DNA from: a virus | Taxonomy: Duplodnaviria > Heunggongvirae > Uroviricota > Caudoviricetes | Virus record (IMG/VR): IMGVR_UViG_2609459834_000013 | Location: 1-19,800 of that record | Direction: 5' to 3' (one strand) | Length of the DNA: 19,800 nucleotides | Shown: positions 11,934 through 17,517 of the stretch, one piece after another | How positions within the stretch are numbered: position 1 is the stretch's first letter | How the letters are laid out: every line of letters begins with the position of its first letter | Notes under the pieces: model-generated | Databases searched by the model: none | Told to the model about the DNA's origin: nothing | The model's input: the letters and a program-made list of their open reading frames with translations, nothing else | Translations under genes and position numbers: made by a program

Positions 11934-13286
<1,353 letters not shown>

Positions 13287-13590: not shown

Positions 13591-14488
<898 letters not shown>

Positions 14489-14611
14489 TTAAAAGACAGG
14501 CATACTAATAAACACTGCACTGTGTATTCATTCCAACGAGTGAATACACGGAGCAATGTCGCTCGTAACTAAACAGGAGCCGACTTGTTCTGATTATTGG
14601 AAATCTTCTTT

Positions 14612-14639
14612 GCCCTCCAATGTGAGGGCAGTTTTTTTT
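14612..14639 (+). terminator. intrinsic terminator (tL1-like) on the pL strand
   Basis: GCCCTC-CAATGT-GAGGGC hairpin followed by AG and a run of eight T, 13 bp before the next start codon. Confidence 0.7.
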
Positions 14640-14652
14640 GACGGAGTAAACG

Positions 14653-14901
14653 ATGATAAAAACTGATTACCCTGCAGATCTTAAACAAAAAGTAATAACA
14701 GCAATTAAATGCTCTTTTATCTCATGTCGTACAGATGAAGAACGATATGTCGTTGAGTGTGCAATTGTCGAGTTTCTCACAGCGATGGAGTTTACCGCTG
14801 CAGAATCAATAGATGTATTAAAGCAATCAGACGGAAATGATATTGAAACGGATGATGTTATTGACCGACTAATAAAATCATTCGAAGAAGAAATAGAGTA
14901 G
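14653..14901 (+). CDS. hypothetical small acidic protein (82 aa; about 20 Asp/Glu versus 9 Lys/Arg)
   Basis: ORF track; GGAG Shine-Dalgarno 8 nt upstream; AT-rich; sits where lambda carries ral. Confidence 0.55.
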   Translation: MIKTDYPADLKQKVITAIKCSFISCRTDEERYVVECAIVEFLTAMEFTAAESIDVLKQSDGNDIETDDVIDRLIKSFEEEIE

Positions 14902-14984
14902 CCGCCTGAGCGCGGCTTTACCGCATACCAATAATGCTTCACGAGAGGCATTTTCGTTATGCAATCAAATATAAGGAGTTACCC

Positions 14985-15119
14985 ATGATGCACTTTCAGC
15001 TCGCGGGTAGCGGCGTCATGTCCGCTTTCTACCCGCACGAATCAGAATTATCACGCCGAGTTAAACAATTAATCAGAGCAGCAAAGAAACAACTGGAGGC
15101 GTTATGCGCAATGAAATAG
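14985..15119 (+). CDS. cIII: CIII-like protein (FtsH inhibitor family), 44 aa
   Basis: Track ORF 14934..15119; start placed at the ATG after an AAGGAG Shine-Dalgarno; core …PHESELSRRVKQLIRAAKKQLEAL resembles lambda CIII core …PSESLLERITRKLRDGWKRLIDIL. Confidence 0.55.
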   Translation: MMHFQLAGSGVMSAFYPHESELSRRVKQLIRAAKKQLEALCAMK

Positions 15120-15256
15120 CCATTAATCACCAGATGCTTCGTGCTGCACAGAACAAAGCAGTAATAGCCCGATTTATTGGTGATTCAAAAATGTGGCTTG
15201 AAGCAAATAAAGCGATGAAATCAGCTATCAATCTTCCGTGGTATCGCAGGAAATGA
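15104..15256 (+). CDS. kil: Kil-like small protein (50 aa; below the ORF-track cutoff)
   Basis: Hand translation MRNEIAINHQMLRAAQNKAVIARFIGDSKMWLEANKAMKSAINLPWYRRK*; GGAGG upstream; the FIGD-containing segment resembles lambda Kil as I recall it. Confidence 0.45.
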   Translation: MRNEIAINHQMLRAAQNKAVIARFIGDSKMWLEANKAMKSAINLPWYRRK

Positions 15257-15411
15257 GTTTTACAGATAACTGGTCAGACGAAGAATTCATTCGTCAGATG
15301 AAAGAATTAATCGATAACGAAGGAGATATTCATGTCACTTGCAACCACAGTGAAGGAGAGCAAGTTACAGAGACGCATGTACACGCAGAAAGCTCTCTGG
15401 TATCGCCATAA
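15253..15411 (+). CDS. small hypothetical ORF (52 aa)
   Basis: Hand translation MSFTDNWSDEEFIRQMKELIDNEGDIHVTCNHSEGEQVTETHVHAESSLVSP*; start overlaps the kil-like stop (ATGA). Confidence 0.3.
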   Translation: MSFTDNWSDEEFIRQMKELIDNEGDIHVTCNHSEGEQVTETHVHAESSLVSP

Positions 15412-15512
15412 TGGCGACCGCGAAGGAATGCGGGTATGCCTTAATTTGTCCCGAGTAGAAGTATTAAATCAGCGTTATTTCCTTGGGCCATGTCCATTCT
15501 GAGAACAATCAT

Positions 15513-16831: not shown

Positions 16832-16996
16832 ATGAGAGGACTTGCATACAATCCCGGCATTCTTCCGGCAGAAATGATTATTCGCCAACGCGTAAAGCCA
16901 ATGCCATCGAGAGAGGAATTACTTAAGAGAAATTCTTTTCCATCAGTGAATCAAAACAAATATCTGAATGCGATGTTGCGGAGTGGGAAGAAATGA
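16832..16996 (+). CDS. small hypothetical protein (54 aa)
   Basis: Internal Met of track ORF 16679..16996 preceded by TGAGGAA Shine-Dalgarno; stop overlaps the next gene start. Confidence 0.35.
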
Positions 16997-17517
16997 AACA
17001 AATGTCACTAATTGAGATGGATGGTTTTCTGAAAGGTAAATGCATCCCACGAGATTTAAAGGTTAACGAAACAAACGCTGAATATCTGGTGCGCAAGTTC
17101 GGTGAGCTTGAATCAAAACTGGAAACGGCGTTGCGGGAGTGTCGTTCTGCTGGAATCACGATTGATAACCTTGAGGCTAAATGCGCGAAGATGGCTGCTG
17201 AAAATACCTCGCTTAAGCAATCTGAGAAGGAATTTAATGACTTTTGTCGTGAGGAGTTTAGCGAATGGGAAGATGATGTTACTGAAACCCCGACCACCGA
17301 CGCCTTCCTGGCTGAAGTGCGGGCCAGCGCGGTAGAAGAGGCTTGCCTGAAAATTAGCAACGCCATCGTTAATTGCTATCAGGACGAACAAATCGGTCTT
17401 GATGCGGCAGCAACTATCTGCGGGGACTTCGCCGCCCAACTTCGCCAGGATGCCAACACCGCAGAACTGGTAGCCGCTGGAATCATCACTAAGGTGGGGG
17501 GGGTAGGGTATGGCTGA
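16993..17517 (+). CDS. hypothetical protein with predicted coiled-coil region (174 aa), ea-region type
   Basis: ORF track; translationally coupled to both neighbours. Confidence 0.5.

Follow-up and report, generated by a model that had tools for sequence, protein, structure and literature searches.

The window, by which we mean the whole 19,800-nucleotide stretch of DNA that was analyzed, is a lambdoid phage or prophage of mosaic make-up. It aligns with HK446 over 65% of its length at 97% identity, and positions 14400 to 15000 are 99.7% identical to HK446. The early-left (pL) operon contains a small gene for an 82-aa acidic protein, with the following features around it.

12253 to 12885: cI-type repressor, listed in the early-left (pL) operon
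13591 to 13914, plus strand: N, 100% identical to HK446 N
13907 to 14410, minus strand: 164/167-aa gene, HK620 HkaP-like, between N and the terminator
14610 to 14639, plus strand: tL1-like intrinsic terminator found in a terminator scan, also the conserved left edge of a cassette slot
14643 to 14646, plus strand: GGAG Shine-Dalgarno sequence, read from the sequence, 6 nt 5′ of the ATG
14653 to 14901, plus strand: coding sequence of the 82-aa acidic protein (HK446 gp36 / Kapi1_017 / phrog_14587 family), from the open reading frame and its translation
14900 to 14917, plus strand: GC-rich hairpin AGCCGCCTGAGCGCGGCT, an inverted repeat in the scan that overlaps the stop codon of the 82-aa gene; the cIII leader comes next

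The order N, terminator, 82-aa gene, cIII, kil, gp33 (Arf-region) relative, erf, SSB-like gene and abc2 matches that of lambda, where the counterparts are N, sieB (on the opposite strand), orf28-ral-ea10, cIII and kil. The 82-aa gene thus occupies the ral position, as proposed in the initial annotation. The same annotation described it as the first gene past the terminator that follows N; this order is right, but the opposite-strand gene at 13907 to 14410, between N and the terminator, had been overlooked. The latter is 99% identical to HK446 gp37, related to HK620 HkaP (phrog_1244), and shares its position and orientation with lambda sieB. It has a GC content of 0.40, and its product, which matches no Pfam or PADLOC family, has a coiled-coil-like N-terminal half and a C terminus with a CxxC...CxxC arrangement. 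It may be a prophage-expressed exclusion gene.

Translation of the open reading frame at 14653 to 14901 on the plus strand yields the following 82 residues: MIKTDYPADLKQKVITAIKCSFISCRTDEERYVVECAIVEFLTAMEFTAAESIDVLKQSDGNDIETDDVIDRLIKSFEEEIE. They include 20 Asp or Glu and 9 Lys or Arg residues, giving a pI of 4.25 and bearing out the net charge of -11 estimated at first sight. The gene is AT-rich, as had also been noted, with a GC content of 34.9% compared with 47.3% for the window and 50% for the HK446 genome, and the GGAG sequence is properly placed before the ATG. The upstream terminator is canonical, as expected of a tL1-like element: it has a GCCCTC/GAGGGC stem, a 6-nt CAATGT loop and eight T residues at 14632 to 14639, and the identical sequence is annotated as rho-independent in HK620 and HK106. 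A scan for structured RNA gave no Rfam match in the window, and we therefore rejected a known structured RNA in place of the protein. The 82-aa ORF is a genuine gene.

The protein matches the small, phage-restricted phrog_14587 family at full length (E = 2e-48, residues 1 to 82 of an 82-position profile). It is identical to HK446 gp36 (YP_007111989 / AFH20664) at 81 of 82 positions (98.8%), the sole change being D9E. A word-indexed search of 5.8 billion proteins returned near-identical copies only, an exhaustive HMMER search over 1.84 billion representatives gave 18 clusters, and a profile search brought together 40 homologue clusters at 90% identity. We aligned 39 full-length members of 74 to 89 aa, which are 29 to 98% identical to the window protein and keep its helical hydrophobic/heptad pattern; all 39 match phrog_14587 and no other PHROG. 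Four residues, A17, C25, G61 and D67, are invariant in this alignment, and conservation reaches at least 90% at E40, A44, E51, L56, I70 and D71. The dN/dS ratio is 0.03 between the Bas77 gene and a metagenomic relative and about 0.10 for two E. coli prophage copies, with saturated synonymous sites. The family is under purifying selection.

Genes of the family are carried by 58 of 5,426 complete E. coli genomes, where they are always chromosomal and always annotated as hypothetical, and by 112 phage records. Only 2 of 72,556 plasmids carry one (at ~99% identity), which led us to reject a plasmid leading-region anti-defense gene. A ~43%-identical homologue is also found in some 100 virulent siphophages of the Skatevirus type, whose hosts are Salmonella, E. 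coli, Shigella and Klebsiella; there, it is the first operon gene behind a good sigma-70 promoter (TTGACG-17-TATAGT). The temperate homologues in pL-type operons are promoter-proximal in Pantoea piersonii and farther downstream in an E. coli prophage, and another Pantoea prophage has its homologue near xis/int. In the lambdoid and Skatevirus contexts alike, the family gene is always an early accessory gene.

Alignment of the window with HK106, mEpX2 and H-19B revealed that the 82-aa gene sits in a slot with common flanks. On the left, the terminator is kept in all three phages up to its T-run, and divergence starts beyond it. The right flank consists of the hairpin and the cIII leader and is near-identical in mEpX2, where it follows ea10, and in H-19B, where it follows gene 17. 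Between these edges, HK106 has no gene, mEpX2 has ea10, H-19B has gene 17 and lambda has orf28-ral-ea10, while the 82-aa gene fills the slot in the window, HK446, Kapi1 and ECP1, with the same flanks around HK446 gp36, Kapi1_017 and ECP1_057 as around the window gene. The stop codon of every slot cassette lies at or within the common right-hand hairpin. A 63%-identical homologue is found in the same pre-cIII slot of another lambdoid contig (L018). The locus has the conserved edges and replaceable content of a lambdoid pL-operon accessory cassette (tL1-cIII slot), and the empty slot in HK106 and the unrelated genes found elsewhere between identical flanks show that the 82-aa gene is a dispensable, exchangeable cassette. 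The 98.8%-identical protein is present in both the HK97-like siphovirus HK446 and the P22-like podovirus Kapi1, and this near-identity and the low GC content are signs of horizontal exchange.

The alternative slot cassettes also encode small, strongly acidic and mutually unrelated proteins, with net charges of -14 for Ea10, -14 for gp17 and -12 for lambda orf28, next to -11 for the 82-aa protein (window 14640 to 14920; L009, L013 and L014). Lambda Ea10, P22/H-19B gp17 and lambda orf28 share the flanks of the 82-aa gene and are, like it, single small acidic ORFs that end in the common hairpin; their sequences are unrelated to it. Ral, a basic protein (+3), is the only slot protein with a known function. 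In Kapi1, the gene 5′ of the cassette, Kapi1_018 (L021, 643 to 1326), has an Nmad5 (nucleotide-modification-associated) motif and replaces the HkaP-like gene, so that the position adjoining the slot is variable as well.

RNA sequencing of a Kapi1 lysogen placed Kapi1_017 below the detection threshold, likewise cIII and kil (PMC12922286), so that the gene behaves as a repressed lytic-cycle gene rather than a lysogenic-conversion gene. The 82-aa gene, a dispensable and horizontally exchanged accessory cassette of the pL operon, is silent in the prophage, and we propose that its product would be made only once N lets transcription pass the terminator. In the virulent Skatevirus phages, the homologue would be made directly from the host-type early promoter.

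All 39 family members are acidic, with net charges from -7 to -20, and acidic residues are conserved at positions 5, 9, 30, 40, 49 to 51, 54, 65, 67, 68 and 71. The charge density of the window protein (-0.134 per residue) ranks third among 59 HK446 proteins, and gp33, NinF and NinX are essentially equal to it (-0.13 to -0.14); it falls between those of T4 Arn (-0.098) and T7 Ocr (-0.239). Acidity is a family trait and a selected property, notable but neither extreme nor unique.

AlphaFold2 with the family alignment predicted a four-helix bundle (pLDDT 88.8, pTM 0.77) with helices at residues 7 to 21, 28 to 44, 49 to 58 and 64 to 81. A Foldseek comparison of this fold with the PDB gave no match at E ≤ 0.001, and fold searches returned generic helical bundles only. 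In BFVD there were only two matches, both to uncharacterized Salmonella-phage proteins, at least one of which is a clear family member. If the bundle has an up-down topology, with the H1-H2 and H3-H4 loops at the same end, the invariant residues C25, G61 and D67 are probably located together at one pole. Their predicted placement suggests a specific site rather than solely a diffuse DNA-like charge surface. An enzyme would need to be larger than this protein. We rejected zinc or Fe-S binding through an obligatory multi-Cys site, because Cys25 is the one invariant cysteine and certain members contain no other, and inspection of the DGNDIETDD loop showed that its spacing is wrong for an EF-hand-like element.

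The protein is already catalogued (HK446 gp36, phrog_14587) and, as an accessory gene, has also already been screened. For this purpose, Silas et al. (bioRxiv 10.1101/2023.04.06.535777; Nat Commun, PMC12373910) drew on the hypervariable regions of 1,706 enterobacteriophage genomes for accessory genes, 200 of which they had synthesized. In their Supplementary File 3, UDP0194 is AFH20664.1, encoded by HK446 25659..25411 (10.1101/2023.04.06.535777), i.e., the protein that is identical to that of the window at 81 of 82 residues. The HK446 gene had thus been chosen independently as accessory, in a high-scoring variable region (10.1101/2023.04.06.535777). The UDP numbers correspond to the orf numbers of the paper, UDP0001 being ocr, UDP0002 arn and UDP0087 ral (10.1101/2023.04.06.535777), and orf194 is outside both the dropouts (36, 52, 88 and 94) and the mutated clones (25 and 84) (PMC12373910).

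The screen was pooled, with single-copy expression and eight model phages, and its outcome is given here as it appears in the authors' notes and named genes. In all 3 replicates of the EcoKI assay, performed with MG1655 and unmodified lambda, the anti-restriction hits noted are ardA, ral and ocr and no others; the only other genes noted are UDP79 and UDP183, with which growth was enhanced with and without infection (PMC12373910). The counter-defense genes named across 45 phage-host combinations are orf48, 63, 92, 116, 126, 148 and 143, plus Ocr, Ral and ArdA, and weak, non-reproducible effects are ascribed to orf7, 68, 107, 151 and 153 (PMC12373910). Cell-death triggers named for follow-up are orf7, 24, 98, 116, 145 and 184 (PMC12373910). 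Within these notes and named genes, which cover 196 tested genes and the 45 combinations, orf194 is nowhere designated as a counter-defense gene or a cell-death trigger (PMC12373910).

The function that we tentatively favor, at somewhat less than an even chance, is that the early 82-aa protein binds and neutralizes one host or rival-element protein. The product would be a compact four-helix bundle with a conserved negative surface, acting by stoichiometric binding. Its target would probably offer a basic, nucleic-acid-binding surface and would be something other than EcoKI-type type I restriction; a defense or host factor outside the tested set is possible. Such a mode of action is supported by the small, non-enzymatic fold and the conserved acidity, and also by analogy with operon neighbors that act in this manner, since cIII inhibits FtsH, Kil inhibits FtsZ and Abc2/Gam inhibit RecBCD. 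Against it count the lack of a phenotype for the gene in the notes of the accessory-gene screen, its absence from the genes recovered in an anti-OLD screen described below, the generic nature of the fold matches, the probable clustering of the conserved Cys, Gly and Asp residues at one pole and the existence of three other HK446 proteins of similar charge density.

A small acidic four-helix DNase inhibitor to which the 82-aa protein may be compared is the colicin E7 immunity protein Im7, which is similar in size, acidity and helical-bundle class. A weak single-sequence match (phmmer E = 0.24) aligned residues 45 to 78 with Im7 helices I and II; this lead was lost with the family profile and was absent from fold searches. 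Unlike Im7, the 82-aa protein stops at the equivalent of helix II, before helix III, which in Im7 carries the conserved Tyr-Tyr DNase-binding motif.

Alternatively, the protein might serve the phage itself, as a partner or modulator of recombination, replication or lysis-lysogeny, or as a chaperone-like partner of a small phage protein. The operon does carry erf, abc2 and cIII, and a role of this type fits with the absence of orf194 from the effects named in the host-defense screen. The genes that come after the homologue in the Skatevirus operon are an acidic 63-aa gene, which is always next, a ParB-like gene, a gene for a DNA methyltransferase, and RusA. Two Skatevirus-like metagenomic contigs encode proteins, P0027 (122 aa) and P0019 (85 aa), in which the C-terminal portion of the acidic 63-aa protein is joined in frame to the homologue (compare L002:5001-5455 and L010:4001-4455). 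These fusions could be a Rosetta-stone hint of joint action or a tolerated deletion, and together with the constant neighbor they weakly favor a phage-internal role. However, we found no neighbor conserved across the three genomic contexts, which indicates that the moving unit is a single gene, and a conserved two-gene module was rejected since the neighbors vary by context. In addition, HK106 and similar close relatives do without the gene, and its presence in both temperate and strictly virulent phages shows that it is not lysogeny-specific. We consider a phage-internal role unlikely.

A part in conflicts between mobile elements appears quite unlikely to us. In this case, the protein would target a rival prophage, a satellite or a superinfecting phage, or would act as a decoy or trigger-blocker for abortive infection. 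Genes of such a kind are indeed present in the slot and around it. P22 gp17, another occupant of the slot, has been associated with evasion of exclusion by the Fels prophage. The orf184 gene, from an accessory region that also holds ral, triggers gop-beta-cII. A 2026 preprint reported that Gp33 triggers the P2 OLD abortive-infection tRNase and that Oad2 (gp27) inhibits OLD (10.64898/2026.07.10.737580). The window encodes relatives of both, that of HK446 Gp33 at 15253 to 15411 (84% identity) and that of HK446 gp27/Oad2 at 16993 to 17517 (54% identity), and the operon is thus an active site of defense and counter-defense. However, the screen of a random HK446 genomic library for OLD inhibitors yielded gp27 (Oad2) and not gp36 (10.64898/2026.07.10.737580), and the genes named by Silas et al. 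as triggers of cell death in ECOR strains do not include the 82-aa gene. Moreover, a gene that is not expressed from the prophage is not a classical exclusion gene.

The overlapping small ORFs 15253 to 15411 and 15332 to 15502 match phrog_2123 and phrog_1723, both of which are named "recombinase." For ORFs of 52 to 56 aa, one of which belongs to the Gp33 OLD-trigger family, this name is implausible and may reflect loose PHROG labels.

The initial annotation suggested that the acidic protein might be a DNA mimic or an inhibitor of restriction. In its most specific form, this would make it an anti-restriction protein directed against type I R-M systems, working as a functional counterpart of Ral or as a DNA mimic of the Ocr/ArdA type. 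The ral slot, the acidity and the phrog_14587 label speak for such a function, as does the Bas77 homologue, which shares its operon with a DNA methyltransferase gene. The label itself calls for scrutiny. The phrog_14587 description is "anti-restriction protein," and the RefSeq copies carry the same name. Among the 112 phage records, the GenBank originals read "hypothetical protein," except that of ECP1 (KY979108), which reads "antirestriction protein ral," and a few recent direct submissions, e.g., Bas77, bear the PHROG-derived name. In ECP1 (L011, KY979108, 2501 to 3350; ECP1_057), the label "cIII protein" sits on a gp33-like gene and the true cIII and kil are called hypothetical. We infer that the phrog_14587 description descends from this positional mislabel and then spread to RefSeq and pharokka-style annotations. 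The label thus has one primary source in the phage collection, which is itself mislabeled at cIII, and our search found no experimental basis for the family's name.

Similarity searches did not relate the protein to Ral, in agreement with the first impression that the two sequences are unrelated. There was no match to the Pfam Ral family (PF11058) at E ≤ 1, the hhalign probability was 0.07% and the BLASTP E value was 16, and homology to Ral was rejected on these grounds. The 82-aa protein is like lambda Ral in that both are encoded in the tL1-cIII slot of the same operon and are small, non-essential and N-dependent. Unlike it, Ral is basic (+3, pI 8.8) and Cys-rich, so that acidity is not the Ral-like feature, and Ral scored in the EcoKI assay, unlike UDP0194.

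The protein resembles T7 Ocr (gp0.3), ArdA and T4 Arn in being small, acidic, helical and expressed early, and the Skatevirus homologue comes first after an early promoter, the position of gene 0.3 in T7. In contrast, PDB sequence and structure searches detected no sequence or fold match to Ocr, ArdA or Arn, nor did Pfam, PDB-sequence or PDB-fold searches detect one to ArdB/KlcA. No family was matched in Pfam, NCBIfam or PADLOC; the PADLOC defense models gave no match at E ≤ 1 for the 82-aa protein and two distant homologues, and the family profile found nothing below E = 0.098 among all PDB sequences. DUF366 and other weak Pfam matches were inconsistent across the 39 members and were treated as noise. 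The predicted four-helix bundle matched no known DNA-mimic or anti-restriction structure in the fold searches. In charge density, the protein reaches roughly half the value of Ocr and exceeds that of Arn.

The available experiments point in the same direction. Going by the authors' notes, UDP0194 gave no EcoKI hit, whereas ardA, ral and ocr all did. Furthermore, the Skatevirus phages Bas77 to Bas81 are markedly sensitive to R-M systems (PMC11990801), and Bas77 carries a homologue of the 82-aa protein. Restriction inhibition, including DNA mimicry, is thus unsupported for the defenses tested so far as the published notes report them, and a type I anti-restriction protein is very unlikely. Anti-type IV restriction tied to a phage methyltransferase is also unsupported, because a methyltransferase gene is present in the Bas77 operon but absent from HK446. 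Finally, a chance ORF or a decaying gene without function, as the low GC content, the small size and the lack of a "similar to" note for gp36 in the original HK446 annotation might suggest, can practically be dismissed in view of the dN/dS values of 0.03 to ~0.10, the 39 full-length homologues with invariant residues, the confident AlphaFold2 fold, the well-placed ribosome-binding site and the occurrence in 58 of 5,426 E. coli genomes and 112 phage records.

The favored function, neutralization of one host or rival-element protein by binding, can be extended, more doubtfully, to a new class of early inhibitors. The target of the 82-aa protein would then be a defense or host factor outside the tested panels that is common to Escherichia, Salmonella, Klebsiella and Pantoea, and it would be engaged through the Cys25/Gly61/Asp67 pole, not by DNA mimicry. 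More broadly, the slot between tL1 and cIII would be reserved for exchangeable acidic inhibitors, namely the 82-aa protein, Ea10, gp17 and orf28, each with a different target.

The 82-aa protein is best filed with the small acidic early phage accessory proteins, and it has no sequence or fold kin among characterized families. The "anti-restriction" name seems to go back to one positional mislabel and is contradicted for EcoKI by the available experiments, as far as the authors' notes report them, and surveys that tally anti-restriction genes in phages and prophages count the phrog_14587 family wrongly. Newly found phage counter-defenses come mainly from small early accessory proteins, and this family is conserved, selected and present in both temperate lambdoid and virulent Skatevirus phages of enterobacteria. 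If its target were found, this would also shed light on the acidic neighbor cassettes Ea10, gp17 and orf28.
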